From sequence record NC_048186.1: a stretch of 64,000 nt of DNA; one strand, 5' to 3'. The translations under genes and the position numbers were made by a program. Each line of letters begins with the position of its first letter. The stretch's first letter is position 1. Below are positions 1-61,579 of the stretch, piece after piece. Origin of the DNA: Escherichia phage vB_EcoM_KWBSE43-6. Below the pieces are notes generated by a model. The model searched no databases. It was not told the DNA's origin and worked only from the letters and a program-made list of their open reading frames with translations.

Positions 1-2
1 TG

Positions 3-854
3 AAGATTTCGTTGCTTTCCAATGGTTACAACAAATTGGAAGTCGATCTCTCTAATCTTGTCGTGAGGACAGACACAGCGCTCCCTCAATCGCTGGCTGT
101 GTATTCACCCACAGGTGGGTCACAAATATGGTCTATGACAAGCCTGTTCAACAGTTTTTTCGCTGACACTCGTTTCAACGACTACGTGAAGGTCGTGGAA
201 TATGATTCAGATATGCTGAACATTGAAACGCAATTCACTAGCGTCAACAACCGCATAAATCTGAAACTGGATACTGCGACATATACGACGAAAATGACCA
301 GTCTGGATTCTCAGATAGCGAATTTACAATCTGGGAAAGTGGATAATACGACGTATACGGCGAAAATGACAAGCCTTGACAGTCAAATCAGCGGCCTGTC
401 TACGAATAAAGTTGACAAATCGACGTATGACACCAAAATGGCTAGTTTAGACGGTCAAATCAGTGATCTGACTACAAACAAAGTCGATGTGTCGACGTAC
501 ACTACTGATATGAACGCCTTGAATTTGGCGCTGGCGGGTTCGGTGAAATTGGCTAAAACCAACACCACCAGTGTTTCTGTCCCGGCTTCTGGTAGTGCTG
601 CGTTACCTGATTTCACTTTGGTGAATCTGTGTCAAATTTTGATTACAGCCAAATGGGGTACATTGGTTGATACGTTCTTGGTCACAATGACGTATGACGG
701 TACTCTTCAGGCAACGTCATTGACACAAAAAAGTACGGCGGGGACTTTGTCGTTCGCAGGTTCTGTTGTTTCAGGTAAACTACGCCTGACAATGACCAAT
801 GCTAATACAACAACCGCAGCATCTGTCGATTATTCACTTCGTGCTTCTTTCTAA
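3..854 (+). CDS. tail fiber-like structural protein, C-terminal fragment (5' end outside window)
   Basis: Frame is open to the window start; four in-frame 24-aa repeats (KVDxxTYTxKMxSLDxQIxxL); Thr/Ser/Ala-rich C-terminus; sits at head of tail-spike cluster. Confidence 0.5.
   Translation, partial: KISLLSNGYNKLEVDLSNLVVRTDTALPQSLAVYSPTGGSQIWSMTSLFNSFFADTRFNDYVKVVEYDSDMLNIETQFTSVNNRINLKLDTATYTTKMTSLDSQIANLQSGKVDNTTYTAKMTSLDSQISGLSTNKVDKSTYDTKMASLDGQISDLTTNKVDVSTYTTDMNALNLALAGSVKLAKTNTTSVSVPASGSAALPDFTLVNLCQILITAKWGTLVDTFLVTMTYDGTLQATSLTQKSTAGTLSFAGSVVSGKLRLTMTNANTTTAASVDYSLRASF
264..542. repeat. four tandem in-frame 72-nt degenerate repeats inside fiber-like gene
   Basis: Peptide repeats KLDTATYTTKMTSLDSQIANLQSG / KVDNTTYTAKMTSLDSQISGLSTN / KVDKSTYDTKMASLDGQISDLTTN / KVDVSTYTTDMNAL read from translation. 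Confidence 0.7.
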
Positions 855-862
855 ATCTTAAA

Positions 863-901
863 CTAAATACCCCTAGACGATTACATGTGCTAGGGGTATT
901 T
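863..901 (+). promoter_or_regulatory. late-promoter-like CTAAATA box inside a 12-bp perfect palindrome abutting the start codon
   Basis: CTAAATA 863-869; arms AAATACCCCTAG 865-876 and CTAGGGGTATTT 890-901, 13-nt loop; ATG at 906. Confidence 0.5.
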
Positions 902-905
902 TCAA

Positions 906-3900
906 ATGGCTAATAAACCCACGAAACCAAATTTTCCGCTTGGGCTTGAATCACAAGATCAATCCGTATTTCAAGAAGGTATTCTGAATAATGGTGTTGT
1001 AGAACATGGCCCAGATGCGGTAATGACTGTGCCAGAAACTCCTGACGCATCTGGGGTTCCTTCTGCTGTCCGTTATAACGAAGATGACGACCAGTTTGAA
1101 GGCTATTACAACGAAGGCGGTTGGTTGCCGCTTGGGGGTGGTAACGGTGGGCGCTGGGAACTCCTTCCGCATGCCCCCTCTTCCTTGTTACAGCTCGGTC
1201 GTGCATATCTGGTGGATAACACTGACGGTGCCTCTACGGTGGTTTTCCCTCCCCCTAAACGGGTTGGTGATAGCATCACTGTGTGTGACCTTTTTGGTAA
1301 ATTCTCAACTTATCCTCTGACTGTTGACGGTAACGGTAAATCGATCTATGGCTCTGCGGATAGCATGACGATTTCTACCGATAACGTCAGCGCGACGTTT
1401 ACGTGGACTGGTGAATCCCGTGGCTGGGTTATTACATCAGGCGTCGGTCTGGGACAAGGCCGGGTTTATAGTCGCGAAATTTACAGCCAAATTCTGTCAG
1501 CGACAACACCATCTATTACCCTGAGCACTCAACCATCTATTGTAGATGTGTATGTTGACGGAAAACGTTTGAAAGAATCCCTGTATACTCTCGACGGGTA
1601 TGAAGTTAAATTCGATCCGGCGCTGGCCTCTGGTTCTGATGTGCAGATTATTCAGTACATCCCAATTCAGCTCGGCGCGGGCGGTGGGGGTTCTGGTGGA
1701 ACTGTAATCACCTGGGAATACAACGGCGGCTCAGCTATCGGCGGAGAAACCCAAATCGTGTTGGATGTGGTCGTGGACTCAGTATCTGAGATCTACATCC
1801 GTGGTTCCCGTCAACAGATAGGGCGCGGGTTCACATTTGATCCTGCCACCAGTACGATTACCTTGGCGGATGAACTGGATGCCGGGGATGACGTTGTCGT
1901 CGTTATCAACGGTGACCCAACGGTCTACAACCAAATAGATCGCACTCCTTGGGAAGTTGCTCGGGCGTTTAACGTCTCAAATAACAGCGTCATTATGAGC
2001 AATGACAGGAATACTACCCTTGACGGGAAAACGATAGTATACGATATTAACAGTCAAAACTCTTGGGAAATTCCTGCTGGTATTCCTGTTGGCGCTAAAA
2101 TATCAAGTGTTTCTTCAGGGATTCTTGTGTACACCCCTGGTAACGTCAGTGTCACATTGACATTGTTGACGACGGGTACTACTGTTCTGAAACGCCTCGC
2201 CAATAGCAATTCTGGTAACGGCGGTGATATGGTTCTTTACAAAGCATCTTCAAATGCTGTGGAAAGAGCTATTTCTATGGCGTTGAAAGATTTTGTAAAC
2301 CTCCATGATTATTATCTGTCTTCTGATAACGGAGATTGGTATCCTGCATTTAACAGGGCTTTCCAAGATTCCCAAAATATTTTAGTTCCTTATGGTTCTC
2401 ATGTTGTCAAAACCACGGTTGTTCCACCATCCAATTCAAAAATAATTGGTCTTGGGGAAGCCAGTATCGTTAAATCACCAGATGCGATTGACGCCGCCGC
2501 CACAAACCTCGTTACCGTGTTTCGGGCTACTGGTTCAGATAATATATTGATTTCTGATATTACAATAGATGGTGGTGTTAACGAAGTCAACACCGCCAAA
2601 TCCTTTACACGAACTGTAAGGTTCATTAATTGTACCAACGTGTCGTTGCTGAGGGTTCGAGTATTAAACAACGCGGATTGGTCGACATCGTTCGAAGGCG
2701 GTCATGACTTTACGGTGAAGAATTATTACCAAAGATCGTATCGTTATCAGAACACTGCTATCAATTTGAATGGTGGACGTGATGGCCTACATTTCATGGA
2801 TTGTTATAATGTGAATGCAGACGGCCTTGACATAGAATCTGGTGATGATTGCGTGGGTATCACCACTACTGGTACAGATCTTGAAAATATCACGATTCGT
2901 AACCTGTGGGGTTCATCCAATATTGCTTCTCTCGTTATTTTTAACGAAGAAAAAGATTCTAACGATGTGTACTATTCAGCTAATGTCACTGGATTGAATA
3001 TTAGTGGTATCAGGATCAAGAAAGGCGGCAACGCTCGAAATATCGTCAGGGTTATAGGATACGGTGCCAACACCCAAATCAAAGATGTTTCAATCTTGGA
3101 TGTAAGGGGAAAAGCCTTTAACTCTTATGGTATTTGGGTGCAAGGTAGCGTTGACCATCCAGTAGACACAGTACACATAAGCAATTCAGACGTTGGTTCA
3201 CAACAGGCCCACGGCGTTCTGTTGCAGAATATAAAACGTTTGTCCGGTAACGTCTATGGTTATTATGAGGGTGTGAATTCTTCCGCTTCATTTGTTGGTG
3301 TGAACATGGTTTCGATCACTGGTGCGATGTTCACTCCAGGTTCTAGAAGTTCTTACGGGTATGGTGTACAAGTTCTGACCAGTAAAGATATCGTGCTGAC
3401 ACCTGATATCGAAAGTTGCGGCGCTGGGTTGTTCAGCTCTGCTTCTGGGGGTAATTTACGAATAGTAAACTGTGATGGTGTAACCATACCTTATGGCCGT
3501 GCCGTCGGGGACGTGGCTGTCAGCTATTGGGGTATCAACTTCGGTGGAAATACAAATTTAGACGTGGGTCTGGAATTCGTGTTTGGTGGGTTTACCAACT
3601 CGTCTCTCCCGAACTCTTATTATTTAAAAGCCCCAGCAGTTGATATCAAATGGAAAGAAGCGTCTGACGGGACTGTGACTATGAGTATCGCTCGTGGCGC
3701 CAGTATAGTCAGAAACAGCCAAGGCAATTTTACAATAACGTTCAACAATGATATGCGCAGTACATTGTTTTCTTGGCAGGCGACCGCCTATCACAATGGC
3801 GCGTTACGTTTAGTTCGTCTTGCTTCTGCTGTGGGGACTAAAACGATGACGATACAAGTAACGGATACGGCAAATGCCGCGACGTTCGCTGATTTTATAG

Positions 3901-3935
3901 AATTGAAAGCGTTTAACACTGCTACAGGATCTTAA
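906..3935 (+). CDS. tail spike protein, 1009 aa (TSP4-like), pectate-lyase-type beta-helix
   Basis: ATG 906; beta-helix signatures (NNADWSTSFEGGHDF, GRDGLHFMDCYNVNADGLDIESGDDCVGITTTG); N-terminal Ig-like modules as in gp10-like attachment domains; late-promoter hairpin upstream. Confidence 0.75.
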   Translation: MANKPTKPNFPLGLESQDQSVFQEGILNNGVVEHGPDAVMTVPETPDASGVPSAVRYNEDDDQFEGYYNEGGWLPLGGGNGGRWELLPHAPSSLLQLGRAYLVDNTDGASTVVFPPPKRVGDSITVCDLFGKFSTYPLTVDGNGKSIYGSADSMTISTDNVSATFTWTGESRGWVITSGVGLGQGRVYSREIYSQILSATTPSITLSTQPSIVDVYVDGKRLKESLYTLDGYEVKFDPALASGSDVQIIQYIPIQLGAGGGGSGGTVITWEYNGGSAIGGETQIVLDVVVDSVSEIYIRGSRQQIGRGFTFDPATSTITLADELDAGDDVVVVINGDPTVYNQIDRTPWEVARAFNVSNNSVIMSNDRNTTLDGKTIVYDINSQNSWEIPAGIPVGAKISSVSSGILVYTPGNVSVTLTLLTTGTTVLKRLANSNSGNGGDMVLYKASSNAVERAISMALKDFVNLHDYYLSSDNGDWYPAFNRAFQDSQNILVPYGSHVVKTTVVPPSNSKIIGLGEASIVKSPDAIDAAATNLVTVFRATGSDNILISDITIDGGVNEVNTAKSFTRTVRFINCTNVSLLRVRVLNNADWSTSFEGGHDFTVKNYYQRSYRYQNTAINLNGGRDGLHFMDCYNVNADGLDIESGDDCVGITTTGTDLENITIRNLWGSSNIASLVIFNEEKDSNDVYYSANVTGLNISGIRIKKGGNARNIVRVIGYGANTQIKDVSILDVRGKAFNSYGIWVQGSVDHPVDTVHISNSDVGSQQAHGVLLQNIKRLSGNVYGYYEGVNSSASFVGVNMVSITGAMFTPGSRSSYGYGVQVLTSKDIVLTPDIESCGAGLFSSASGGNLRIVNCDGVTIPYGRAVGDVAVSYWGINFGGNTNLDVGLEFVFGGFTNSSLPNSYYLKAPAVDIKWKEASDGTVTMSIARGASIVRNSQGNFTITFNNDMRSTLFSWQATAYHNGALRLVRLASAVGTKTMTIQVTDTANAATFADFIELKAFNTATGS

Positions 3936-3936
3936 C

Positions 3937-4173
3937 ATGAATATAAATTGTGTTTTTGTGAAAGACGAAATTCCCCTTGAGAAACAAGATGACTTTTTGA
4001 AATTATTTTTGGAAAGAATATCATTGGAATTCTCTGATGTCGTGATAACGGCAGAATGGGGAGACGATGAAACTGCTGTCGTTTCAGAGGATTGTTCTGA
4101 TTACGTCAAAGCAAATTATCAAAGATTTGTAGACGGTCTTAAACAAGACCTCATTATTTTCGATTATTTCTAA
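3937..4173 (+). CDS. hypothetical protein, 78 aa, acidic
   Basis: ATG 3937 two nt after upstream stop; AT-rich small ORF between tail-spike genes. Confidence 0.5.
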   Translation: MNINCVFVKDEIPLEKQDDFLKLFLERISLEFSDVVITAEWGDDETAVVSEDCSDYVKANYQRFVDGLKQDLIIFDYF

Positions 4174-4174
4174 A

Positions 4175-4212
4175 CTAAATACCCCATATTGGTAACGCCT
4201 TATGGGGTATTT
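4175..4212 (+). promoter_or_regulatory. late-promoter-like CTAAATA box inside a 12-bp perfect palindrome abutting the start codon
   Basis: CTAAATA 4175-4181; arms AAATACCCCATA 4177-4188 and TATGGGGTATTT 4201-4212; ATG at 4216. Confidence 0.5.
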
Positions 4213-4215
4213 CAA

Positions 4216-6795
4216 ATGGCCAGAAACATAGAAGAAATTTTCGGTGGGGTAGTCGTAGCACCACACCAGATCCCGTTCACGTACACTTCAACAAACGGTG
4301 GGGAAACTTTTATATCTCTGCCATTTTATCCCATCACCGGGTTCGTTACTATCAACGGTGGTGTACAGGTCCCTCTTGACAATTTCGAAATAGACGGAAA
4401 CACATTAAATCTTGGTCGAGAACTGGATCCAAGTGATGTTGTGTTCTGTTTGTTCGATAAAATCATGTCACCTCAAGATGCCAGTAACAACGCAGTTCGA
4501 GTTTATAAATTCATCTCTGTTGGAGGAGAAACGGAATTCACTCCAGATTTTACGGCGTATGGTGTCCAATCTCTTTATATCAATGGGAAATACCAAATAG
4601 CTGGTGAGGATTACACATATTCTAAGACAGATGGGAAAGTTTCTTTTACTACCCCATTAGTTACTGGAGTATGGGTTGCAGCTGAGATGAACATAAAGCA
4701 AAATATCCCCGCTTTAGCTGGCAATAATGGCGCATCACAAATCGGAACAGAATCAGGGCAAAATGTTCAATTAGAACTCGATTCATTCCGTAATTTGTTC
4801 GGGGAATATGGGTTTAGCATGATAGGGCAAACCACATATCAAGGATTGAGGAATTATAACGGCAATTCCAATTATATGATGATATATGGTAGATCCTATC
4901 TTCTAGATGGTGGTCATGGTATATTTGATTTAGTTCCTGGCGGTAATGCCATGACAACCCCTGACGATGATTGTGTGCATATTCGAGATACGTTGGGGCG
5001 GTTATGGCGTCGTAGATTTGAAGACAATGTCATAAGAATGAGCTGGGCGGGTGCTAAAAACCAATTAGAAACATCATCACCACAAGATGATGCTTTCAGG
5101 AACTGCCTGCTTGCGGCCAAATCGTTGTCTCCTACTGGTTATCCACAATCAATCATTAAAGGATTAGACCGTGGTGTAGTTTATCTTGCAGAGCGGCATT
5201 ATATCCGTTGTGGTAATTTCCCTGAATATATGGCGTGGAAATTGCCACCTACTGGTGGTGGTGACCGTTTTGGGCTGGATCTGCTGTGTGCATTGGGAGA
5301 AGGGGCGGGGTTCTTTATCGTCCAAGCTAATAACCCATTGTTGCGCGTCCGGGTAGACAACACTGGTATCCCATTCAATGTTTCGAATTATACTGATGCC
5401 CAACTTGTGAGTATAGTTGAGAACAATTATATCTTACGTTTGGAATCAATGGTGAACGCTCCGGAATTCGACGTTCATCCAGGTAATTATCCCGGTACTG
5501 TTCTTTACAGCACGGGTAAAAAGGATTATTCTGCAGTAACTGCACAATGGCCTGATTTGGTCCAAGTCTTACCGTCTATACAGAACGTCGGTAACGCGGT
5601 GTTTAACATAAAAAACTGTGGTCGAGATTTTATGTTAACCAATACTGGGGCTGGGTTGGGTCATTTTCATTCCGTTTGGTCACAAAATAACCGACTCCCT
5701 GGTTATATATCGAACTGCTATGATTTAACGATGACATATGAAGATTATGTCCCACACAACGAAACATCTGGTGGATTGATATTTAGTGAATGTGGCACTC
5801 TTTCTTTAGAAAATATTTTGATTGGCGCAGGTGGGGTAGGACATTTGTGTATATGGGATTGCCGTAACGTCCATATGAACCGTCATATCTCTATATGTGG
5901 TAATACCACTTGGGCTGCATCTAACCAAGTAGATGATCTTTATGCTTTAGAAATTTGTAACTCCGAAGTTCATATGAGCGGCGTGCATGCTCAAAACTCT
6001 GGTAAATTCGCACGTGTAGGATTCAATTCACAATTAACGGTTGATCACCTTACTGCATGGGATGTTTCAAAATTATTCTTGATGACGAATGATTTGACTA
6101 AATTGAAATATCGTGGGCAGCGGCAGGCTGTTACAGGGGACCCGAGCCGGATTTATGTGACATCAGGATTCGCTCAAAACCTTAACGCATCTCAGTTCGG
6201 TTGGGCTTGTGCTCCTGTAATAGAAATCGACAGCACAGTTAACGGTGATTTCAAATTTTATTGGAATTGCTGGACCAATAACGTTCATGCAGGGTATGGA
6301 TCTGAATCTGAAGCAAATCTTGCTATTATTAGCGTGGCTTCTACAAGTTCTACAGGATCTGTGTCATTCGGCGAAGACGCTAAATTGGAAGGTAATACGA
6401 CGAACTACGTCCTTCGTCTTGCAAACAAAAACCAATTGGGGAAAGTGCGCACTCGTCAAACATCTTTCTGTCGTGTACGTTATACCAATGACAACTCACA
6501 GTCATCTTTTGCAATGCGCGAAGCTGCTCATGACAATGGAACTACTGTGATCCCTATTGACGGAACAACATACAGCTATCCGTACCGCAGACCTGCTAAA
6601 TATTTCGTATCTTTAAACGTCCCTGCTGGTGGTGGTTCATGCTCAGTGACATTAAACGGTATGACGATTTTCCAAACTACGGTAGTCGGGACACATGGTA
6701 TAGTTATTGAAATGAAATACCAAGAAACCGTCGTGTTTACGTCATCCAACGTTACTGTATCGAATGCGCAGTGGCGTTATATTTTGGAGGAATAA
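4216..6795 (+). CDS. tail spike protein, 859 aa (TSP2-like), beta-helix
   Basis: ATG 4216 (track start 4189 is TTG inside the hairpin); same upstream architecture and tttcaaATGGC start context as 906 gene; beta-helix-like repeats in C-terminal half. Confidence 0.7.
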   Translation: MARNIEEIFGGVVVAPHQIPFTYTSTNGGETFISLPFYPITGFVTINGGVQVPLDNFEIDGNTLNLGRELDPSDVVFCLFDKIMSPQDASNNAVRVYKFISVGGETEFTPDFTAYGVQSLYINGKYQIAGEDYTYSKTDGKVSFTTPLVTGVWVAAEMNIKQNIPALAGNNGASQIGTESGQNVQLELDSFRNLFGEYGFSMIGQTTYQGLRNYNGNSNYMMIYGRSYLLDGGHGIFDLVPGGNAMTTPDDDCVHIRDTLGRLWRRRFEDNVIRMSWAGAKNQLETSSPQDDAFRNCLLAAKSLSPTGYPQSIIKGLDRGVVYLAERHYIRCGNFPEYMAWKLPPTGGGDRFGLDLLCALGEGAGFFIVQANNPLLRVRVDNTGIPFNVSNYTDAQLVSIVENNYILRLESMVNAPEFDVHPGNYPGTVLYSTGKKDYSAVTAQWPDLVQVLPSIQNVGNAVFNIKNCGRDFMLTNTGAGLGHFHSVWSQNNRLPGYISNCYDLTMTYEDYVPHNETSGGLIFSECGTLSLENILIGAGGVGHLCIWDCRNVHMNRHISICGNTTWAASNQVDDLYALEICNSEVHMSGVHAQNSGKFARVGFNSQLTVDHLTAWDVSKLFLMTNDLTKLKYRGQRQAVTGDPSRIYVTSGFAQNLNASQFGWACAPVIEIDSTVNGDFKFYWNCWTNNVHAGYGSESEANLAIISVASTSSTGSVSFGEDAKLEGNTTNYVLRLANKNQLGKVRTRQTSFCRVRYTNDNSQSSFAMREAAHDNGTTVIPIDGTTYSYPYRRPAKYFVSLNVPAGGGSCSVTLNGMTIFQTTVVGTHGIVIEMKYQETVVFTSSNVTVSNAQWRYILEE

Positions 6796-6797
6796 TA

Positions 6798-7097
6798 ATG
6801 ATTAAAGCAATCAAAGGGGATTTCACTGCTGTAACTTCAGTAGGAGAAATTTCATATCAATACGCTACTGTCCAGACTTTTCGGGGAGATGCAACGAGCG
6901 TGACCGTAGATGTATTTCTTTCCGATCGCTGGATTATCCAACGGGACGGGATCAATGTGGTAGATGATACTGCGCCTGGATTTTTCAAATCTGTACAGTT
7001 TGCTCCTGATTGGCAGAGCAGTTTGAATATCATAGATCAGGCTTATGAATATTTGAAAAGTCTTCCAGAGTTTTCAAATTCTACTGATGTTGTATAA
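6798..7097 (+). CDS. hypothetical protein, 99 aa
   Basis: ATG 6798 with GGAGG 8 nt upstream; overlaps end of preceding tail-spike gene. Confidence 0.5.
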   Translation: MIKAIKGDFTAVTSVGEISYQYATVQTFRGDATSVTVDVFLSDRWIIQRDGINVVDDTAPGFFKSVQFAPDWQSSLNIIDQAYEYLKSLPEFSNSTDVV

Positions 7098-7130
7098 AGT
7101 TAAGGGGGCTAGACCCCCTTAACTTATTTT
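7097..7130. terminator. bidirectional rho-independent terminator
   Basis: 12-bp perfect stem AAGTTAAGGGGG / CCCCCTTAACTT, loop ctaga, T-tract after; A-tract before serves the minus strand. Confidence 0.6.
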
Positions 7131-7372
7131 TCTATTTGTACAACAATCCCGTTTTCTTTTAAAACAGCTTCCAATTGCTCAATATGTAGCCTTAAATTTG
7201 AGTAGACGGTCGCTGCGATCAAAATTTCTTCACTTAATTTAACAGGTGAGTGAAGTGCGTCTATGTTAAAATTTCCTCCTGACGCAATAACTTTTCCATC
7301 TTCGTTAAATGTGTAGATGCAAGGATCTGGTTTATTTTTCTTAATCTTTATCAGTATTTCTTGTTTCCCCAT
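7124..7372 (-). CDS. hypothetical protein, 82 aa, opposite orientation inside tail-spike cluster
   Basis: ATG (minus) at 7370-7372 with GGAGA 9 nt upstream; stop lies in bidirectional terminator. Confidence 0.45.
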   Translation of the reverse strand: MGKQEILIKIKKNKPDPCIYTFNEDGKVIASGGNFNIDALHSPVKLSEEILIAATVYSNLRLHIEQLEAVLKENGIVVQIEK

Positions 7373-7442
7373 GATACATATCTCCAGCTGACTATGATTT
7401 GTACAAACATTGTACCCGAAACCGTTCGTTTGGAATAATACA

Positions 7443-7449
7443 CTAAATA
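7443..7449 (+). promoter_or_regulatory. late-promoter-like box CTAAATA
   Basis: CACTAAATACAAG 39 nt upstream of ATG 7488; same 13-mer context upstream of 9822 gene. Confidence 0.4.
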
Positions 7450-7487
7450 CAAGAATCAAGCCACAGAAAAACAACAGGAGATTCATC

Positions 7488-9491
7488 ATGAATCCGCAAT
7501 TTAGTCAGCCCGGTGGTTCCGTCTCTAAAGACGTGAACAAACAATCTATCGCACGTGTATTCTCTAAGAAAAAGAGTGATATATCATATTTGAAAGTTGG
7601 TTCTAGCGTTAATGGTTATGCTGTGCTATTCGAGCCGACAACCCAAACGTGTTGGTTTAGAGGGACTGCAACAGGTAATACAGTTTCTTGGACTATCAAC
7701 AATGATATCATGACTTTAGTGACTTCGGGTGGTTCCTTCACTCTGAACAAAGCCCAAGTTTGGGATTCTGTTACACTTTCCGGTGGAAATGCGACGAGTT
7801 TGATCGGAACACCTTCTGGTGGAACGTTAGCTAATCTGTTATTACGGACTGTGTCTCCTGCTGAATTCGGATTAGAAAACGATCCAACAGGAGTCAAAGC
7901 AGATAAAAATACCATGGCTGTTCAAAAGGCTATTCGTTACCTGAATTCTTTGGGTGGTGGACGTCTCTTGTTCCCTACTGGGCAATACACATTTTGCTAT
8001 GGAATTTGGTTGTTTGACAACATTCTGATCGATCTGAACGGTAGCATCTGTACTTTCAAAAACGCAACTTTTCCATTACGCAGTCGGGCATGTTTTGTTA
8101 TGGGTTCTTCTTATGAAGTCAACCGTGACAAGGCTATGAGTTTTTATGATGACGGCACCTACATCAACAACCCAAACCCGACCAATACAGCATATGTGAA
8201 TTTGCCGTTGGGAACGTTTTTGCGTGACAATGTCAATAAAGCGGAAATCAAAAACGCGCATATAATGAATGGGCATATCAAAGCCACGTTTGATTCCCCT
8301 ACTGCAAACGGTGCTTATGCAATAAATATGGCAAATGCGATGTATTGCACAGCACATGATTTATTCTTTACTGGATTCACAGAAGCCATAAACATGGGTT
8401 CGGATACTGGTTCTGAAACTCCGTCTTGCCATGGTTGTCTGGCTCATGATCTTTATATCGTTCAGCCTGACCAAAATAAAACTTATTATTCAATTGGTTT
8501 TATTTCAAACTCCACCAACTGTTCCATTCAACGGGCGATACAATATCTGCCTTGCGCCGCCGGGACAGAGAACGGGTCGGGTGTGGCTACTAACGTCGTT
8601 GAAGATTGTATTATAGAGGACATATTCATACCTTCTTTGGGTATTACGCAATCTTCTGAAGGGGTTCTTTTAAACAACGCAAAAGGATGTGTTGTGAGGA
8701 ACATTTGTGTCCGAAACTGTAAAGTGGTGGTGGCTGTTTATTATGTCAGCACCAGCTATATCAGTGCTGACAAATGGAATCATATTTCTGGCATAACTGG
8801 CCAAGGCACAGTTGCATTGATCGCAGTGCGCGGAAAATATACCACATTTACCGGATTCGCTGCGGATTCAACGACGCCGTATGAAATATATTTCGGGACT
8901 ACAAACGGATCTAACAACCGTATTGAACAAGAACCGGCTAGTATGTATTTCACAGAGACATCAACGGTCAAACAATATTGGTATTGCAATAACAACTACA
9001 TCAAAGGATGGGTCGTCAAATATCTGTATTTGCGGCCAATGAATACACTGGTGAATGACAAATCTGTTGCATTCAACTGGAACATGAACAAATCCGTGTC
9101 AGCCAACGATGACACCACGTTGTATTTCTTATGGGAAGTTCCTCCGTCCGTGAAGGCTATAAAGGCGGTCAAACTTTTCGCATATTACAATACCAACGCA
9201 GTGGCTAAAGGAAGTAATATCAAAATAGAAGTTCGTAGGATGATAGCGTTTGATGGTAACGCTAACACGTTGCCGTACATAGAACCTGCCATTGGTGCAA
9301 CTTCTACAGCAACGGTGGATCAACAGAATATAGCCATGAGCGCGGTTCATTCCGATACGGTTAGTCCCGGCATGGTAGTAACTGGCGATACTACGAATGG
9401 CCTGTCGAATAGTGTTGACATTTTGGTTACGTTTGCCAACACGTCCAAAAACTCTTTAATGAAAGAAATGGAAATTACATACCTGGGGTGA
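7488..9491 (+). CDS. tail spike protein, 667 aa, conserved N-terminal anchor module
   Basis: ATG 7488; N-terminus MNPQFSQPGGSVSKDVNKQSIARVF... shared with 9822 gene and resembling Ackermannviridae tail-spike N-termini; beta-helix-like C-terminal region. Confidence 0.75.
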   Translation: MNPQFSQPGGSVSKDVNKQSIARVFSKKKSDISYLKVGSSVNGYAVLFEPTTQTCWFRGTATGNTVSWTINNDIMTLVTSGGSFTLNKAQVWDSVTLSGGNATSLIGTPSGGTLANLLLRTVSPAEFGLENDPTGVKADKNTMAVQKAIRYLNSLGGGRLLFPTGQYTFCYGIWLFDNILIDLNGSICTFKNATFPLRSRACFVMGSSYEVNRDKAMSFYDDGTYINNPNPTNTAYVNLPLGTFLRDNVNKAEIKNAHIMNGHIKATFDSPTANGAYAINMANAMYCTAHDLFFTGFTEAINMGSDTGSETPSCHGCLAHDLYIVQPDQNKTYYSIGFISNSTNCSIQRAIQYLPCAAGTENGSGVATNVVEDCIIEDIFIPSLGITQSSEGVLLNNAKGCVVRNICVRNCKVVVAVYYVSTSYISADKWNHISGITGQGTVALIAVRGKYTTFTGFAADSTTPYEIYFGTTNGSNNRIEQEPASMYFTETSTVKQYWYCNNNYIKGWVVKYLYLRPMNTLVNDKSVAFNWNMNKSVSANDDTTLYFLWEVPPSVKAIKAVKLFAYYNTNAVAKGSNIKIEVRRMIAFDGNANTLPYIEPAIGATSTATVDQQNIAMSAVHSDTVSPGMVVTGDTTNGLSNSVDILVTFANTSKNSLMKEMEITYLG

Positions 9492-9494
9492 TTT

Positions 9495-9740
9495 ATGCAA
9501 AATTCGGCTATGCGTGATGCGTTATCTCTATTTTATGCTTTATACGACTATTTGGTAAACAAAGTGGAATTGACAGAAACAGAAGAATCTGTCAAATCTA
9601 AAATAGAACAAGATATGGGGATACGTTGTGATGATTCATTGGATGAGCAAATCCTACAACTGCAATCAGAACTAAACCAAGCAGTTGAAGAGGGAGAACG
9701 TCACCAAATCTTAGATAATGTGGTTGAACTTTTGAAATAA
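9495..9740 (+). CDS. hypothetical protein, 81 aa, acidic
   Basis: ATG 9495 four nt after upstream stop; terminator follows. Confidence 0.5.
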   Translation: MQNSAMRDALSLFYALYDYLVNKVELTETEESVKSKIEQDMGIRCDDSLDEQILQLQSELNQAVEEGERHQILDNVVELLK

Positions 9741-9742
9741 CA

Positions 9743-9767
9743 AAGCCCCTTCGGGGGCTTTTCTTTT
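9743..9767 (+). terminator. rho-independent terminator
   Basis: AAGCCCC ttcg GGGGCTT followed by TTCTTTT. Confidence 0.6.
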
Positions 9768-9774
9768 GAACAAA

Positions 9775-9781
9775 CTAAATA
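9775..9781 (+). promoter_or_regulatory. late-promoter-like box CTAAATA
   Basis: AACTAAATACAAGGAG 41 nt upstream of ATG 9822. Confidence 0.4.
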
Positions 9782-9821
9782 CAAGGAGACATTGTTAGAA
9801 AAACAACATGAGGAACCACCC

Positions 9822-12098
9822 ATGAAAACGCAATTTAACCAATCACAAGGCTCAACTTCACGTGAGACGAATAAAGAAGCGATTGCTCGCATCTTTGGTC
9901 TCAAGAAGTCTCAAGTCGGATATCTGTCAACAACCACTCCAATTGATTCGTATGTCATATTGTTTGACAAAGAAACTCAGACGTGTTGGTATCGAGGTAC
10001 AGCAACAGGTACTCCAATTTCTTGGAATGTCAATGGTGAATCATTATCTTTGACAACTAATTCTGGAACTTCTATATTAACTAAATCTAAACCATGGGAT
10101 GAATTGAATCAAAAACTATCATCACCACAAGGATTTGGTGCGATAGGCAAATTTTCTTCTTTGATTAATTTAAGAAATCATGAACCCACATACCCTGGCG
10201 AATCTGTGATTTTAGAAAGAATAGCGTCTGGGAAACCGACAGTTAACGTAGTGCTAAGGCATGATCCTACTGATACCACGTCTGTGGATGACGACATAAG
10301 CATATTTGTTACACCTGGTGGTGCTCGTTGGAAATTGGATATTAGTGATGGTTATGATATGAGACTGGCAGGGGTTAATGTTGATGGTACAAACTTTTCC
10401 TCTGCTTTAAATAAAATAGTCAGTGTCATTATTTCAAAAATAGTAGCTAATGGGCGGGTAAATAATGTTGCTCGTCGCATAAAAGTTGTCCCGACAAATT
10501 TTTTATGTCAATTCTTTTTAACTGATCCTGTTGATTTACCATCAATCGTGTCATGTTCTTTTTATGGGTCACCATTCATAGAATCACAAAACATGACGGG
10601 ACTCTATTCTTTCAGAATAGCCAACCAACCGTTCAGCACGTTGACCAAGGCTATGATGCAAGCAGAAACTTCGTGGCCTAATGGCCCGTTAAACCAAGTT
10701 ATCGGGAATAAAGTTATAAATTCAGGGGATGGCGGGAGAATAACTTTAAGGGGACCCGGATTTTCAGATGGTGTCCCAAGGATAGGTGTTATATTAGGTA
10801 ATGATGTGACCACAGATAAAGACGTGAGGGATTGTAGCGTAGAAGATATGAATATCTTCGGCTTCGACGCTTCTCATACGTTGGGTGGCTATTTTACCTT
10901 TATGGCAGGCTTCCGGAATTGTAACTTCTCGCGTTGTAATGTTGGTATGCGATTACCAAATATCACTGGAAACGCTGGGGAAAGAATGTGGTATGATTCT
11001 TGCACTTTTGGTAACATGACAAGCCATGCATTACACGTATTTGGGGCTGGTACGTATAGCTTGGTCAACACTTCCATAGACTTCATAGGCGGGGATATGT
11101 TCCATTATGGATCTGATTCTTCTGTGTCTATAGAATTTATTTCAGGCCATATAGAAGGTATACAAGGGTATGATGCCGCGAAAGATACTCCGACGAACTA
11201 TTCTCAGGCCAGGGTTCATATCCATTCTGCCGTTCTGAGAGATCCGAGACAAGGAAGCGGCCAATACAGGGGTATAAGGCAACGTTGGTCTTGCCCTTCT
11301 TCTTCATTTGGGCAAGGACTTTCCGTAATAGACGAATCTATTTCCCCCGGAATGGAGAATACAAAACCGAACACTGCATATCCGTGCTTTATGGGTAGTC
11401 CAAGTAATACTGGTGTTTACATAGAAACCCCGCGAACTGCTAACCGGGGAACGCCGTGGTTGAACAGCTATAGTGATTCTTGTTCCAAGAGAATAAATCC
11501 GACATATTTCTTTATAACTTCGGCGGGTACTGGGGAGTTAGGTCAGAGTCAATTAGTGTTGGATTATAACTTTTCATACACCAAAACTGGGGATGGAATA
11601 GTAGAATATGGTGTAGTCGGTGACGCGGATGCAGATGGATTTATACCGTTCAAGATTACTTGTAATGATGTCAATACAGTCATTAATTTGTTCTGTAATA
11701 ACCGATCTAAAGCCACCAACGGAAACAAGCCTTTATGGGGAGCTTGCTCAGTTAAATTGGCGAATTCCGTGGGTGATGTCATGATCGCTCCACTTAGGGC
11801 AACATATTTAGGTTCTACTATCACGTCGATATATAATGACACCACGAAGACGGTAACAAGTACGTTAAATCCTGTTCTTCGTTCAACAAACGTGGGAGTT
11901 GCTCTTAACCTTAGAGATCTGTTGAACGGAAGCGGACTAACAACTAATGACTATCAGGCGACTTATCCTCGATATGTTACTGGTTACTACCAGGGCAATG
12001 ATTTCTTTGTCCCCGGTTTCCGCCTTTGGAATTTCACAGGAACCATATATTTGAAATTGCCTATTTGGTGGTTCGAAGGTGATAACTTTGGAGCATAA
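9822..12098 (+). CDS. tail spike protein, 758 aa, conserved N-terminal anchor module
   Basis: ATG 9822 (GAGGA 8 nt upstream); N-terminus MKTQFNQSQGSTSRETNKEAIARIFG... homologous to 7488 gene; divergent C-terminal receptor-binding/depolymerase region. Confidence 0.75.
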   Translation: MKTQFNQSQGSTSRETNKEAIARIFGLKKSQVGYLSTTTPIDSYVILFDKETQTCWYRGTATGTPISWNVNGESLSLTTNSGTSILTKSKPWDELNQKLSSPQGFGAIGKFSSLINLRNHEPTYPGESVILERIASGKPTVNVVLRHDPTDTTSVDDDISIFVTPGGARWKLDISDGYDMRLAGVNVDGTNFSSALNKIVSVIISKIVANGRVNNVARRIKVVPTNFLCQFFLTDPVDLPSIVSCSFYGSPFIESQNMTGLYSFRIANQPFSTLTKAMMQAETSWPNGPLNQVIGNKVINSGDGGRITLRGPGFSDGVPRIGVILGNDVTTDKDVRDCSVEDMNIFGFDASHTLGGYFTFMAGFRNCNFSRCNVGMRLPNITGNAGERMWYDSCTFGNMTSHALHVFGAGTYSLVNTSIDFIGGDMFHYGSDSSVSIEFISGHIEGIQGYDAAKDTPTNYSQARVHIHSAVLRDPRQGSGQYRGIRQRWSCPSSSFGQGLSVIDESISPGMENTKPNTAYPCFMGSPSNTGVYIETPRTANRGTPWLNSYSDSCSKRINPTYFFITSAGTGELGQSQLVLDYNFSYTKTGDGIVEYGVVGDADADGFIPFKITCNDVNTVINLFCNNRSKATNGNKPLWGACSVKLANSVGDVMIAPLRATYLGSTITSIYNDTTKTVTSTLNPVLRSTNVGVALNLRDLLNGSGLTTNDYQATYPRYVTGYYQGNDFFVPGFRLWNFTGTIYLKLPIWWFEGDNFGA

Positions 12099-12099
12099 T

Positions 12100-12354
12100 A
12101 TGTATACCATACATAAAATTCCTTGTGACATAGTCTACAATTCTTTGTTAGAGCATCATAAGTTTTTCATATCTTTAAAGAAAGATTTGGCAAAGCGTAT
12201 TAAGAATTCTACGTCAGGATTCAAATATGAAAATTTCAAATTTTGTTATGACAAAGATGATGTAAATCAATATTATCTAAAATTAGATTCAAAATGTCGT
12301 GACTTTGAAACCCAATTAAACGAAATTTGGTTTCATTCAGTACACCAACAATGA
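12100..12354 (+). CDS. hypothetical protein, 84 aa
   Basis: ATG 12100 immediately after tail-spike stop; AT-rich. Confidence 0.45.
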   Translation: MYTIHKIPCDIVYNSLLEHHKFFISLKKDLAKRIKNSTSGFKYENFKFCYDKDDVNQYYLKLDSKCRDFETQLNEIWFHSVHQQ

Positions 12355-12364
12355 GGATTATGGT

Positions 12365-12625
12365 ATGAAATTTAGTATAATTGAAACAGAAGTTAACCCA
12401 GGTTCTGAACTAAGGAATTTCTTAGTCGTTCCTGCAGGAAGTGAAAAAGAAACCGAAGACAATTGGATTCTTTCTTTCAAACATGATTCTGTCGATACTT
12501 TGCAAGAAACCGCTTCTCGTTATCTCATCGCATTCGGTGTCTTGTCCTCGTTGTCACTCAGTTTAGACAACACTGCTATTGTTGAATTGGTGAAAACTTT
12601 AGATAACACTTCAGTTTCAAGTTGA
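12365..12625 (+). CDS. hypothetical protein, 86 aa
   Basis: ATG 12365 with GAGGA 7 nt upstream; terminator follows. Confidence 0.5.
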   Translation: MKFSIIETEVNPGSELRNFLVVPAGSEKETEDNWILSFKHDSVDTLQETASRYLIAFGVLSSLSLSLDNTAIVELVKTLDNTSVSS

Positions 12626-12632
12626 TGCAATT

Positions 12633-12656
12633 AGCCCCCTCGGGGGCTTTATTCTT
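12633..12656 (+). terminator. rho-independent terminator
   Basis: AGCCCCC tc GGGGGCT followed by TTATTCTT. Confidence 0.6.
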
Positions 12657-12679
12657 CATACGATGGGTTGTGTGGTATA

Positions 12680-12686
12680 CTAAATA
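12680..12686 (+). promoter_or_regulatory. late-promoter-like box CTAAATA
   Basis: TACTAAATAATTCC about 35 nt upstream of ATG 12721. Confidence 0.4.
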
Positions 12687-12720
12687 ATTCCAAGACAAAA
12701 CTCTATAGATGGAGTACAAA

Positions 12721-15700
12721 ATGCAACAATTGAATCTTAACCGCCGCCCTTATTGGGACGACTGGAATCCAGAGAAGCGTTTCAGCCGCATCCTGTTCCG
12801 CCCAAATCCAATCAAAGTACAGACTCGTGAGCTGAACCAGCTGCAGACTATCCTACAGGATCAAATTGAGAAGATCGGTAATCATCTTTTCAAAGACGGT
12901 TCCATGGTAATCCCAGGCGGTTTGACTATTACCAATTCGGCTGTATCCATGAAGTTCCAGCTGGCGGGTGGGAGCGAATTCACCGACCTGGAAGGCATTC
13001 AAGAACTGTACGTGATTGGCAAAGACAACAACGCCAAGGCCCGTGTATTGTCTCTGGAACGCTACACCAGCGAACCGGATATGATGTTCTGTATCCTGGA
13101 AATGACCGAGTCCGGCACTGCCGATGGATTCAGCCCGAACGATAATCTATACTTCAACACTTATGATGTGAATGATAACTTCATCCGTATCGGTTATGGT
13201 GTTGCACAGACTGTCGGTGGCTCTATTGTTGCTCGGATGACCAAAGGCGTCTATTTCGTTCGTGGGTTCTTCCTCGACGTTGACGATGATATGTTGGTTG
13301 TCAACAAATATGCAAATAACACCAGCCATCGCGTCGGGTTCAAAGTTACTGAAGAAATCGTGACTGAAGAGCAAGATAGTAGTCTGTTCTCCAATGCCCA
13401 GGGTACACCGAACACCAAAGCGCCGGGCGCTCATCGCCTTCGTTTGGATCTGAGTCTTCAGGCGTTTGATTATGACGCAGAAGTCGAAGATTTCGTTGAG
13501 CTGGCGAAGATCAAAGACGGTAAAATCCAGTCTATGGTCACCCAATCGACGTACAATATCCTCGAAGACACTATGGCCCAGCGCACCTATGAGCAAGCTG
13601 GTGACTACAACGTGTCTACTCACCAGATCGACCTTCGCGAACACCTGAAAGAAAACAACAATGGTGGGGTATATACTCCGGCCGAAGGTGGCGATGAAAG
13701 CAAACTGGTTGCGGTAATGAAGCCGGGCATTTCTTATGTCCGTGGTCGTCGTATTGAGAACGTCGGGGAAGAACTCGTCGTCATTGATAAGGCGCGTGAT
13801 ACAGACCTCCTGAACAACACGCCAGTTGCTGTAGCGACAGGTAATTTCCTGACGACCAAGAACTCTAAAGGTGTTCCTGTTATCAGCCGTAGTATTCGCT
13901 ACAAATTGCTGAATGCTTCTGGTGTTACCCAAGCGACTGCCCTGTGTATCTCCGCCGACCGTACCGGGACGGAATTCCGTCTGTATATGCGTGACCTGGT
14001 CGTCACTGGTGATATGAGCACGGTCACCAAAGTCGCTTACGAAGAAAGCGGGACCACGATGTTCTCGGCAGCGTTGGAAACTAATCAGTTCTCACAAAGT
14101 TCATCTATGGATCTCATATTTGAACTGCCTGTCTTTGGCGTGAAAACTTTGGCTCCGACCGGAACGATTGATATCAACTACACCGTCTTGCGTTCTTACA
14201 AAATTACGCTGGATGCGTCAGGTAACGGTTCTATATCTGCACCGCTGGGATACAGTTTTTCTCCGGAATTCTCACTCTACTCCGGAGCGAAATCTGACGG
14301 AACCGCCGCCCAGATCGATATCTCCAGCAGCCTGTCTCTGACCGGGACACCAGTTGGGTCGGCTCTGCAGATTTCCCTCGGTTCCGGTAATGCTCTGCAA
14401 TCTATCAACCTGTTGGCGCTGATGGTACGCACCACTGCTATCATCAAAACCAAAACTGTTACGACTGCTACTGAGACTGTGATCTTCACCAACCAGGCCA
14501 GCATCCAGCTTGCGAACCATGACGGCTACAAATTGACTTCCGTCAAAAATGCCAATGGTGCTGACGTGACCTCTAACTTCACTCTGGATGGCGGGCAGCG
14601 TGATGCGGCGTACTACAAGTCCAGTCTGATATCGGCCACTGGAGCCATTTCAGGCGCGTATACCGTGGAATACACGTATTTCGCTCACAGTACTGGTGAC
14701 TTCTTTACCGCTGATTCGTATACTTCTATTGATTACAAATCAATCCCGAATTATACGTCGAGCACGTCGGGTACAGTGTATGGTCTGGCCGACAGTATAG
14801 ACTTCCGCCCTAAAATCACCAATGGTGCGTCTGATACTGATATGGTGCGGCCTAACACGGCGATCATCATGGACGTTGAATATTATCTGCCTCGCATTGA
14901 TGCTGTGTACCTGGCAGACAACGGCGTTTTCAACGTTGCTCGTGGTATCAGTTCGAACAACCTGGCGGCTCCGGCTATTCCAGCAAACGCCATGCGTTTG
15001 TACGAACTGTTGATTCCCCCATATACTCCGGATATTGACGATATTCAGATCCGTACTATCGACAACCGCCGCTACACAATGCGGGATATCGGTAAGCTGG
15101 ACACCCGTATATCGAACGTCGAGTATTACACAACACTGTCTCAGCTGGAATCTTCGGCTATGACTCAGCAAGTATTCGACCCGGTAACAGGCAACCCACG
15201 TTACAAAAATGGTATCGCTGCTGATCCGTTCAAAGACTTTCGTCTGATTGATGATCTGTCTTCCGACTGGATGGGTTCCGTAGACACCGACAATGGTCGC
15301 CTGCGTCCGTTTGTACAACAAAACGCGATTGACCTGGTTCCGGATGGGTGGGACAAGGTTATGGACGGTATGGTCGTGTGCAAATACACACCGGAAATTT
15401 CTGTTAATCAGGAATATGCGACGACGACGATCAACGTCAACCCATATGCTGTGTTTAACTGGACGGGGTTCCTCAAACTCAATCCGACAACAGATTACTG
15501 GTTTGAAAACTACTACGTTGCCCCTCGTGTTATCAACGAGACGATCAATACCCGTGGTGCTGTCCAAGAAGGTACGGTTTATGGTACATGGCGGACTGTG
15601 TCTGTATCTGAGCGGGTATGGGAACCGCACGGCGCGGGCGGCGTATGGTGGGGATATCGTTATAGAACCACTGTGTCTACACGTGATGTTTCGACTTACA

Positions 15701-37116: not shown

Positions 37117-37767
37117 TCAGGGCACAGTCCTTGCTGGCAGAACTCCCACTGGCTCAATACCTTCCACCAGGAGGGAGTTCACGCCTACATCGCTCAACCT
37201 AATCCATATCTTCCCACCAGGCTTAATTTCAAAAACGTTCATTTCATTTCCAACCGCTTCATTATTCACAAATACACCTTGTGTTGCGATCCTGATAGGC
37301 TTCTTCGTGTTGTTTGTGATTTGAAATGTAACAGTTATATCCGTGGTCAGATTAACTCCCTGTTTCATGGTGTAGCGTTTTATTTTGTCGTAGAATGATG
37401 GATTGAATGTGATGATGATGCTGTTGTTCTGTGAGTAATAAATACTTGCTGACAAGTAAGGAATTTTGCCTTCTTCCCCTTTGCGTAAAAGAGGGATGGT
37501 GGTTTTCCAGTATGGTCGCAAAGTGTCTTTATTGTCATCAAAACAACCGACAGGCTGGAGATTTTGGAAACTTTGAAACAAAATAGTGGCCTCATCCAGC
37601 ATGGATTTTTCACATTTGTTGCTGTCTGTTGAAATGGTTACTGGTACAACACGGACATCAGTATCCCAGAGGTCACTAACGGAAATGATGGGCGTGACGA
37701 AAATACGGCAACTTGTCAATACAAGTACCATAAAAATCATCACAATCCATCTTCTGATTCCGCGCAT
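37117..37767 (-). CDS. predicted lipoprotein, 216 aa
   Basis: Minus ATG at 37765-37767; signal peptide MRGIRRWIVMIFMVLVLTSC with lipobox LTSC; stop abuts stop of converging plus gene. Confidence 0.6.
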   Translation of the reverse strand: MRGIRRWIVMIFMVLVLTSCRIFVTPIISVSDLWDTDVRVVPVTISTDSNKCEKSMLDEATILFQSFQNLQPVGCFDDNKDTLRPYWKTTIPLLRKGEEGKIPYLSASIYYSQNNSIIITFNPSFYDKIKRYTMKQGVNLTTDITVTFQITNNTKKPIRIATQGVFVNNEAVGNEMNVFEIKPGGKIWIRLSDVGVNSLLVEGIEPVGVLPARTVP

Positions 37768-37805
37768 CAGGGACACAATTAATCTCCACAGCAAAGGTGC
37801 TAACA

Positions 37806-38306
37806 ATGTCTACTTCAGTCCAATTCAAACATGACAACCCAAATTATGCAGCATCCGATAAGTGGCGCTTAACTATCGGTGATCTGATATTGTTATCCCG
37901 CTCTGTACACGATTTTAGCATACCAGGCGTGTATTCCGAGGGCATCGATGGGCCTTCGCCCGGTTCAGTGCTCAACACGATCCCTTCTGAACGTTTAACA
38001 TATGATCCCATCGTATTTACGTTCGTTATCGATGAGGATTGGGTAAACTGGGAAACCATCTACAACTGGATAGCCAGCAACGCCGCCGCTGATATGGCTG
38101 TTAGTAAAGACATCACCATAGAATTACTCAACAACATGAACCGCCCGGTTGGCCTGCAACTTCTGTTGGAAGAAGCACGTCCAACTGCACTGGACAACGT
38201 TCTTGTTGATGTGGACGCTTCTGTTCCCCAATTAGTTACAACGGTGACTTTCAAGTATCTGAAACTGACACCGACCCGTGTCGTACGTGAAATTGATAAA
38301 GAATGA
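37806..38306 (+). CDS. hypothetical protein, 166 aa
   Basis: ATG 37806; diverges from lipoprotein gene across a 38-bp spacer. Confidence 0.55.
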   Translation: MSTSVQFKHDNPNYAASDKWRLTIGDLILLSRSVHDFSIPGVYSEGIDGPSPGSVLNTIPSERLTYDPIVFTFVIDEDWVNWETIYNWIASNAAADMAVSKDITIELLNNMNRPVGLQLLLEEARPTALDNVLVDVDASVPQLVTTVTFKYLKLTPTRVVREIDKE

Positions 38307-41099: not shown

Positions 41100-41476
41100 T
41101 CCACATAGGCGGGCGTTGGCTCGCCTTCTTCACTGTCGTCAACCAAACCCAGGAATGCGTCAATACTATCACAACAACGTTGTAACAGTTCCGGTTTGAT
41201 GGTTTTGTTGATGATCGCCTGATTTTTGTTGACCAGAGGGAACACTCTTAATTCGCCGAAGTTGCTCATATTGACGATCGCAACATAAAGCCCTGGCTTG
41301 GTATTACCAGACAGAAATGAGAATGGGACTTCTTTGGCAGAGTCGGATTTTGTTTCATCAACTAAAACCTTCAAAAGAGTAGTTGTTGATGTCTCACTAC
41401 CCAATTTCCGGCTTGCCATATCTCCGTGGCTGTACCCTACGGCATAGATTGCTACTAATTGTTTCATTCTATTCAT
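41084..41476 (-). CDS. hypothetical protein, 130 aa, opposite orientation
   Basis: Minus ATG 41474-41476; 3' end overlaps uvsW by 16 nt. Confidence 0.45.
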   Translation of the reverse strand: MNRMKQLVAIYAVGYSHGDMASRKLGSETSTTTLLKVLVDETKSDSAKEVPFSFLSGNTKPGLYVAIVNMSNFGELRVFPLVNKNQAIINKTIKPELLQRCCDSIDAFLGLVDDSEEGEPTPAYVDQDPK

Positions 41477-58532: not shown

Positions 58533-58648
58533 TTTATTGGGAATCGGCAAATAAGTGCTTTATTCAATAATTTTTGTTAGGTAAGCTGTAATCCTCTTGT
58601 AGTGAACACAGAAGTAAACATTAACATAAACCAACTGGAGTAATCCGA

Positions 58649-58927: not shown

Positions 58928-58976
58928 AACAAATTCGGCCAGTACCAGGCGCACTGCGCAGGCAGGTACAAAGAGG

Positions 58977-59003
58977 AAGCCGGGGATTACCCCGGCTTTT
59001 TCG
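58977..59003 (+). terminator. rho-independent terminator
   Basis: AAGCCGGGG atta CCCCGGCTT TTTCGTTCTT. Confidence 0.65.
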
Positions 59004-59052
59004 TTCTTGGGATTCGGGTAAACTATACTGACACCCCCAAAGGAGAAATCAA

Positions 59053-61538: not shown

Positions 61539-61579
61539 AATAATGTCCTCATGATAAACAAGTTTGGAGTATTTATATC

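Follow-up and report, generated by a model that had tools for sequence, protein, structure and literature searches.

Introduction

Morons are accessory genes that bring their own transcription signals and interrupt a pair of genes which sit side by side in related phages; the concept derives from lambdoid/HK97 comparisons. A small accessory gene within a structural cluster is a familiar kind of element. Tail spikes supply a second point of reference: the spikes of the Ackermannviridae exchange receptor-binding modules, as described in passages of PMC8432352. Escherichia phage vB_EcoM_KWBSE43-6 is a Taipeivirus (Ackermannviridae) from sewage which, according to passages of PMC6563267, lysed one E. 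coli strain and none of the Klebsiella (0/19).

We use comparative sequence analysis to study a single minus-strand gene, here called orf82, that lies in the tail-spike cluster of this phage. The window is the whole stretch of DNA analysed, 64,000 nucleotides of record NC_048186.1, and all coordinates refer to it unless a contig is named. The orf82 product is a 100% match to hypothetical protein HOV43_gp211 of Escherichia phage vB_EcoM_KWBSE43-6 (158.6-kb contig), which is 82 aa long in GenBank; taken alone, the gene is a routine hypothetical protein and is already annotated as such. The passages of PMC6563267, PMC11721090 and PMC8432352 that bear on this cluster mention neither orf82 nor spike-cluster promoters. 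What is new here is the proof of selection on orf82, its tiny family with a 2-TM partner, its apparent co-transfer with a spike cassette between phage families, and the precise site of its insertion. As we discuss below, the locus has features in common with morons, with spike-module exchange, with bidirectional terminators and with the accessory genes of lambdoid phages, and differs from each in specific ways.

Results

A minus-strand gene under selection in the spike cluster

The features of the locus are collected in Table 1. The only close relative of orf82 is found in Klebsiella phage vB_KpnM_Bullseye_ER20 (hereafter Bullseye). The two copies differ at 51 of 246 positions, with 29 of these 51 differences at third codon positions, and dN/dS is 0.11 at a dS of 1.08. 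The low ratio is specific to the orf82 frame: the other five frames over the gene all contain stops, with ratios between 0.29 and 2.5. The two proteins are 79% identical and the changes between them are mostly conservative. An ATG-initiated ORF of at least 82 aa arises by chance in 1.0% of shuffles of the 390-nt gap, and we regard the dN/dS result as a stronger argument for the genuineness of orf82 than this shuffle figure. Judged by its pattern of substitution, orf82 is a real protein-coding gene under selection. Its predicted product has a mass of about 9.1 kDa, a pI of about 6 and 0 TM segments, and its GC content is 33% (GC3 29%) compared with 45.7% for the window.

The original prediction for this DNA had described a minus-strand ORF of 82 aa preceded by a Shine-Dalgarno sequence, and this is borne out; in Bullseye the GGAG motif is replaced by GGGT. 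Conservation of the reading frame had been proposed as a check, and when run against Bullseye this check finds the frame kept, at the dN/dS given above. The ORF had further been called the sole opposite-strand gene in the module, which is true for ORFs that occupy the gaps between plus-strand genes and is consistent with how Bullseye is annotated. The remaining minus-strand ORFs of any size in 1..17559 are antisense inside large spike genes.

Two antisense ORFs, 13147..13932 (-) and 14740..15630 (-), which are 261 and 296 aa long and use TTG/GTG starts, lie inside the 1616-aa plus-strand gene 12709..17559 and are probably codon-bias artefacts. Outside the spike cluster, minus-strand ORFs fill or overlap plus-gene gaps at 37117..37806, 41084..41476, 58577..59062 and 60771..61625; a 229-aa ORF among them has a hydrophobic N-terminus.

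Table 1. Coordinates of the features at and around orf82 in the window.
Feature	Position	Strand	Remarks
Receptor-binding part of the spike	4810..6795	+	~aa 199-859 of the gene starting at 4216; horizontally exchanged module
99-aa ORF (phrog_18037)	6798..7097	+	Convergent neighbour of orf82; dN/dS 0.12
Hairpin AAGTTAAGGGGG-CTAGA-CCCCCTTAACTT	7097..7125	both	12-bp perfect stem, 5-nt loop
orf82	7124..7372	-	82 aa + stop; from translation, dN/dS and homologue starts
T-run ATTTTTCTATTT	7126..7137	+	Predicted plus-strand terminator; identical in Bullseye
In-frame upstream extension of orf82	7373..7489	-	Hydrophobic start MMNLLLFFCGLILVFSVLF; judged non-coding
Shine-Dalgarno GGAG	7382..7385	-	9 nt 5' of the orf82 ATG at 7372
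Candidate sigma-70-type promoter GTGGCT-18 nt-TATTAT	7435..7464	-	Putatively for orf82; back-to-back with the ACTAAATA box
ACTAAATA box, late-promoter-like	7442..7449	+	Serves the next spike gene (ATG 7488); not part of orf82

A hairpin fills the space between two convergent stop codons

One GC-rich hairpin takes up the entire 26-nt space between the stop codons of orf82 and its convergent neighbour. The base of the hairpin is overlapped by both stops, TAA at 7095..7097 for the upstream plus-strand gene and TAA at 7126..7124 for orf82. Folding energies of -26 kcal/mol (plus strand) and -24.4 kcal/mol (minus strand) are predicted, with z-scores of -6.1 and -5.4, respectively, and 0/200 shuffles were as good. 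Bullseye keeps the hairpin with one compensatory pair change, T-A to A-T. The complement of the adjoining T-run encodes the C-terminus of orf82, QIEK-stop.

As the U-tract criterion for terminators we applied a 5-of-8 rule. In the window the plus strand passes this rule, with the tail ATTTTTCT, and the minus strand fails it, while in Bullseye the rule is passed on both strands. From these properties the hairpin is predicted to act as a strong intrinsic terminator of plus-strand transcripts; for transcripts of the minus strand it is a weaker candidate. The claim that orf82 ends inside a perfect 12-bp stem held in common with the upstream plus-strand gene finds its counterpart in this hairpin. 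The same structure had been called bidirectional, and that description is half borne out: the stem is stable on both strands and conserved, and a T-run that passes the rule is present for the plus strand only in the window and for both strands in Bullseye. A search of the locus against Rfam returned sub-threshold hairpin matches only.

A late-promoter-like box marks the insertion point

Upstream of orf82, and on the opposite strand, lies a short motif that belongs to the next spike gene. The motif ACTAAATA occurs 10 times in the window where 1.76 copies are expected, a 5-6x over-representation. The plus strand carries nine of the ten copies, eight of them 30-50 nt upstream of gene starts; Bullseye shows the same pattern ahead of its gene starts. 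ACTAAATA is probably the late-promoter element of this phage group, where it would replace T4 TATAAATA. The T4-type late promoter TATAAATA was itself considered and set aside: it has a single copy in the window, distant from the orf82 locus. The plus-strand sites are at 862, 4174, 7442, 9774, 12679, 19192, 23448, 28248 and 29451 in the window, and on L001 at 2110, 5475, 8745 and 13033. The box often comes directly after a GC hairpin with a T-run, and the genes it serves are spike genes and other structural genes.

At the orf82 locus the box is followed by the UTR AGAAAAACAACAGGAGA, and this succession recurs upstream of other spike genes and in phages without orf82; spike-gene upstream regions in general align across phages. 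We attribute the conservation of 7421..7487 to the ACTAAATA box of the next spike gene, which lies there.

Now we consider how orf82 itself could be transcribed. A scan of the window found no ACTAAATA upstream of orf82 facing it on the minus strand, and this absence hints, no more, at host-type rather than late-type transcription. The only promoter candidate for orf82 that is common to the window and Bullseye is GTG(G/A)CT-18-TATTAT, which scores 8/12 in the window, below the scan threshold, and 9/12 in Bullseye (GTGACT-18-TATTAT). The support for a minus-strand promoter consists of one conserved -10-like hexamer. The orf82 leader also contains TTGTACAAACATTGTAC at 7396..7412 (+), a direct repeat of TTGTAC that is not kept in Bullseye, and the first TTGTAC copy sits within the palindrome TTGTACAA.

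Alignment of these elements with those of other phages locates the insertion point. A GC hairpin and its T-run lead directly into AACAAACTAAATA in KP6, in phi1_146041 and, within the window itself, ahead of the next spike gene. In the window and in Bullseye, roughly 300 nt (7138..7436) containing orf82 part the hairpin and T-run from AACAAACTAAATA. A minus-strand gene at that terminator/box junction is absent from the other Taipeiviruses compared.

The spike, the 99-aa ORF and orf82 in Bullseye and beyond

Bullseye and the window share 87.6% nucleotide identity over 4165..7560, a stretch that covers the spike, the 99-aa ORF, orf82 and the start of the next spike gene. Apart from Bullseye, which is the exception, Klebsiella Taipeiviruses match the DNA surrounding orf82 only in the conserved N-terminal spike anchors. 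The receptor-binding part of the spike has its counterpart in a different kind of phage: over aa 199-859 it is 65% identical to the spike of the siphophage LHC_ER2. Across phages isolated on K. quasipneumoniae ATCC 700603 (Bullseye, LHC_ER2, Bubbly, KX1 and P700603), identity to this part of the spike ranges from 65 to 74%. The spike receptor is likely a Klebsiella-type capsule, yet KWBSE43-6 reportedly lysed an E. coli strain and 0/19 Klebsiella strains.

The 99-aa ORF always follows this spike type, be it in the Taipeivirus, on a Casjensviridae-like contig or in six Webervirus-like siphophages (P1, AYM, LHC_ER2, Bubbly, P700603 and K53PH164C2). By tblastn, a homologue of orf82 is absent from all six of these siphophages. 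As a candidate for a spike-specific helper, the 99-aa ORF is better than orf82. Other sites of the 99-aa ORF are 2996..3295 (-) on L005 and 3435..3734 on L011.

Homologues of orf82 in two other phage backgrounds

The orf82 family has five known members, all of them in Klebsiella-type phages. An exhaustive HMMER search of 1.84 billion representative proteins returned, besides orf82, only two small homologues: P0003 (83 aa, 46-49% identity to orf82) and P0009 (99 aa, 39%). Two profile searches over 5.8 billion clusters added only P0013, a 103-aa tandem paralogue encoded on the same contig as P0003 (BLASTP E 1e-7; hhalign probability 95%). When the orf82 protein was run by tblastn against 50,697 phage records, Bullseye was the only match, and tblastn of P0009 against phages gave none. 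No further loci of the family came up when IMG/VR, GTDB genomes and JGI metagenomes were scanned by pattern.

P0003 is encoded on contigs of about 4 kb (L005-L007), the left half of which matches Klebsiella phage YMC16/01/N133 (Casjensviridae, Seodaemunguvirus). On L005 a GC hairpin separates the 83-aa homologue from a convergent 99-aa gene, which has 53% identity to the one at 6798..7097 in the window, and the spike fragment before this 99-aa gene is 73% identical to the C-terminus of the window spike. Spike C-terminus, 99-aa ORF and convergent homologue are all present on L005, and therefore the three-gene block and its orientation recur in an unrelated phage. The homologue is here the last gene of a five-gene opposite-strand operon (85, 106, 58, 103 and 83 aa), and phage N133 is without this operon.

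P0009 comes from a lambdoid Klebsiella phage (L008), in whose nin region its gene sits between ea-type genes and ninB; the 20 kb analysed around it contain no spike gene. A search of E. coli genomes did not recover the L008 island. Three of the families in the L005 operon recur in this lambdoid nin region in the same order: Zn-ribbon, 2-TM and orf82 family. On L008 the stop of the 2-TM gene overlaps the P0009 start as ATGA, which from the sequence suggests translational coupling. No copy of the Zn-ribbon or 2-TM partners was detectable in the window (64 kb examined). In all three backgrounds the GC content of the family member is below that of its genome; for the homologues the values are 48 vs 53.5% and 39 vs 52.6% of their contigs.

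The accessory operon spans 1656..2965 (+) on L005 and 9137..10300 (+) on L008, with Zn-ribbon proteins that are 65% identical and 2-TM proteins (56-58 aa) that are 50% identical, and it ends with one or two members of the orf82 family. As a separate matter, we considered whether 7373..7440 is a relic of the C-terminus of an upstream L005_103-like paralogue, and rejected this: local alignment against shuffles gave p values from 0.05 to 0.95 and BLASTP returned nothing.

A small protein with a misleading resemblance

Searches of Pfam, PHROGs, NCBIfam, PADLOC and PDB sequences gave no significant match to orf82. AlphaFold models of the protein are of low confidence, with pLDDT of 50.7 from a single sequence and 64.8 from three sequences, and they comprise three short strands and two helices, a short one and a long one at the C-terminus. 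Foldseek with this low-confidence model returned nothing at E <=0.001 from PDB and BFVD.

Residues 5-45 of orf82 (7127..7372) resemble one cyanobacterial-type WD40 blade (KLIKKLKEH..VTFSPDGKxLASGS..) at 34-36% identity. The E-values for this resemblance, down to 1e-21 against multi-repeat proteins, are misleading: the large WD40 proteins listed by the HMMER search score through up to 13 summed copies of FSPDGKxLASGS, and a single WD40 repeat reaches only 23-26 bits by BLASTP. Pfam WD40 matched 0/5 members of the orf82 family, even at E <=1, and the FSPDGKxLASGS motif is absent from P0003, P0009 and P0013. We rejected WD40 homology and treat the likeness as a resemblance at the level of a motif.

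Discussion

With moderate confidence, we read orf82 as an accessory gene of the moron kind, which would have arrived along with the receptor-binding cassette of the spike, is kept by purifying selection and probably encodes a small soluble intracellular protein. The original prediction had offered two roles, moron or regulator. The moron part is supported by the insertion between elements that otherwise abut, the low GC content, the orientation and terminator, and the rare homologues in unrelated phages; the regulator part finds no support, for reasons given below. In the sequence of events that we propose, orf82 apparently came into the spike cluster of the Taipeivirus at the outer end of a transferred block, which consists of receptor-binding module, 99-aa ORF, hairpin and convergent small gene, the same block that is seen in the Casjensviridae-like Klebsiella siphophage. 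It would be transcribed leftwards from the weak sigma-70-type promoter at 7464..7435, back-to-back with ACTAAATA, and translated from GGAG/ATG at 7385/7372. Its transcript would stop at the shared hairpin, which would also insulate the spike-operon and orf82 transcripts from each other. The protein would then act as a host-directed accessory factor inside the infected cell, and would be neither a part of the virion nor a regulator of the spike.

Several other readings have to be weighed against this one. That orf82 is non-functional, whether as an antisense ORF that arose by chance or as a passenger that came with the cassette and is now decaying, strikes us as very improbable. It is true that it is an orphan ORF with no family match, that its Shine-Dalgarno sequence is not kept in Bullseye and that the scan found no clear promoter. 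Against this stand the low dN/dS at a dS of ~1.1, with its third-position bias and the stops in the other frames, as well as four further homologues (24-49% identity) with the same length and core motifs and the scarcity of ORFs of such length in the shuffles (1%). The dN/dS result largely refutes the non-functional reading. A different question is which product the gene makes, since the frame as a mechanical ORF reaches upstream to 7489 and would then encode 121 aa. The true product could be this longer form (7124..7489), membrane-anchored, with an N-terminal hydrophobic helix that replaces the 2-TM partner. The longer frame is open in the window and Bullseye alike, because a 1-nt deletion is made good by an insertion of 1 nt at a distance of 22 nt; the Bullseye annotation uses the long form; the hydrophobic MMNLLLFFCGLILVFSVLF stretch is kept; and elsewhere a small membrane-protein gene precedes the homologues and couples to them. 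However, the strand opposite the extension is exactly the stretch that holds the next spike gene's ACTAAATA box, UTR and RBS, all of which are conserved for the spike gene's sake and partly in phages without orf82, and the hydrophobic 'N-terminus' arises as a by-product because an A-rich promoter and UTR lie on the opposite strand. No Shine-Dalgarno sequence precedes the ATG at 7489, which itself overlaps the spike ATG at 7488. Within the first 26 codons three of five substitutions are nonsynonymous (two are synonymous), and a stretch of ~7 codons is frame-shifted between the window and Bullseye. Both P0003 and P0009 begin at or near the 82-aa start: P0003 begins at the short start itself, and P0009 has a lead of 16 aa that is different and non-hydrophobic. 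The 82 aa that GenBank gives for gp211 point the same way, the extension is open by chance in 6.7% of shuffles, and no homology of the extension to the 2-TM protein was detectable. On these comparisons the 82-aa form is favoured, and we consider the 121-aa form unlikely.

A role tied to the adjacent spike deserves separate treatment. Here orf82 would be an assembly helper, or would regulate spike expression through its protein or through convergent/antisense transcription. We keep a spike-linked function as a rival because the family member is next to the same type of spike in two of three independent contexts, and these two, the Taipeivirus and the Casjensviridae-like L005, are unrelated backgrounds. 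In addition, the putative promoter region of orf82 and the promoter that serves the next spike gene overlap, and orf82 is convergent with the spike operon with a hairpin in common. Nevertheless, spike and 99-aa ORF occur without an orf82 homologue in the six Webervirus-like siphophages, the lambdoid homologue sits among delayed-early accessory genes, and the operon members on L005 are unrelated small genes. The family libraries gave no match to a nucleic-acid-binding or chaperone family, and antisense read-through into the spike operon would be blocked by the hairpin. The earlier suggestion of a regulator of spike expression finds no support: no DNA- or RNA-binding family or fold matched, six phages have the spike and not the gene, and the lambdoid homologue has no spike gene in the 20 kb analysed around it. 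We assign a spike-tied role a small share of the probability.

The moron-like reading that we prefer can be extended, although we would put little weight on the extension. The spike module and orf82 could form a 'host-matching' cassette, with the orf82 protein handling an intracellular barrier (defence/exclusion) of the Klebsiella lineage that carries the matching capsule. If this were true, spike module and orf82 would have been co-transferred and co-retained across a Casjensviridae-like siphophage and an Ackermannviridae myophage. In a more speculative structural variant of this idea, the one-blade WD40-like N-terminal half and the long C-terminal helix might build a ring-shaped oligomer.

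Whatever the function of the protein, the locus suggests that a receptor-binding module exchanged between phage families can carry along an opposite-strand accessory gene that is then kept by selection, as the dN/dS of orf82 indicates. It is easy to see how such a spike-cassette passenger gene bears on the engineering and prediction of host range. The orf82 family is very rare, is confined in our searches to Klebsiella-type phages and is usually paired with a 2-TM protein, and its members are candidates for screens for counter-defence, exclusion and toxicity.

Finally, we set the locus against the known systems. As in the spike exchange of the Ackermannviridae, the N-terminal anchor of the window spike (aa 1-~198) is conserved in the genus while the C-terminal part is swapped with Klebsiella siphophages; unlike that exchange, the block in the window brings along two more small genes, of which one faces the opposite way, and none is described in the passages of PMC8432352 on this subject. 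The hairpin resembles bidirectional terminators in that it is GC-rich and stable whichever strand is folded, and in that a compensatory change preserves it in Bullseye, but its U-tract in the window is strong for the plus strand only, and the minus strand passes only in Bullseye. With the lambdoid nin/ea accessory genes orf82 has in common that P0009 lies among them, in an operon with a small 2-TM protein to which it is coupled; on the other hand, the named nin/ea families give no match to orf82 and the window copy is without the partners. The comparison with morons also has two sides. The phage that carries orf82 is virulent, which leaves no lysogen for expression; the gene faces the opposite way and uses its neighbour's terminator, with a weak candidate as its own promoter; and it came attached to a spike module rather than as a lone insertion. 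Like the morons, it parts two elements, a terminator and a promoter-like box, which adjoin directly in related Taipeiviruses, its GC content is below that of its surroundings, a hairpin terminator stands at its end, and it is small, rare and found in unrelated phages.
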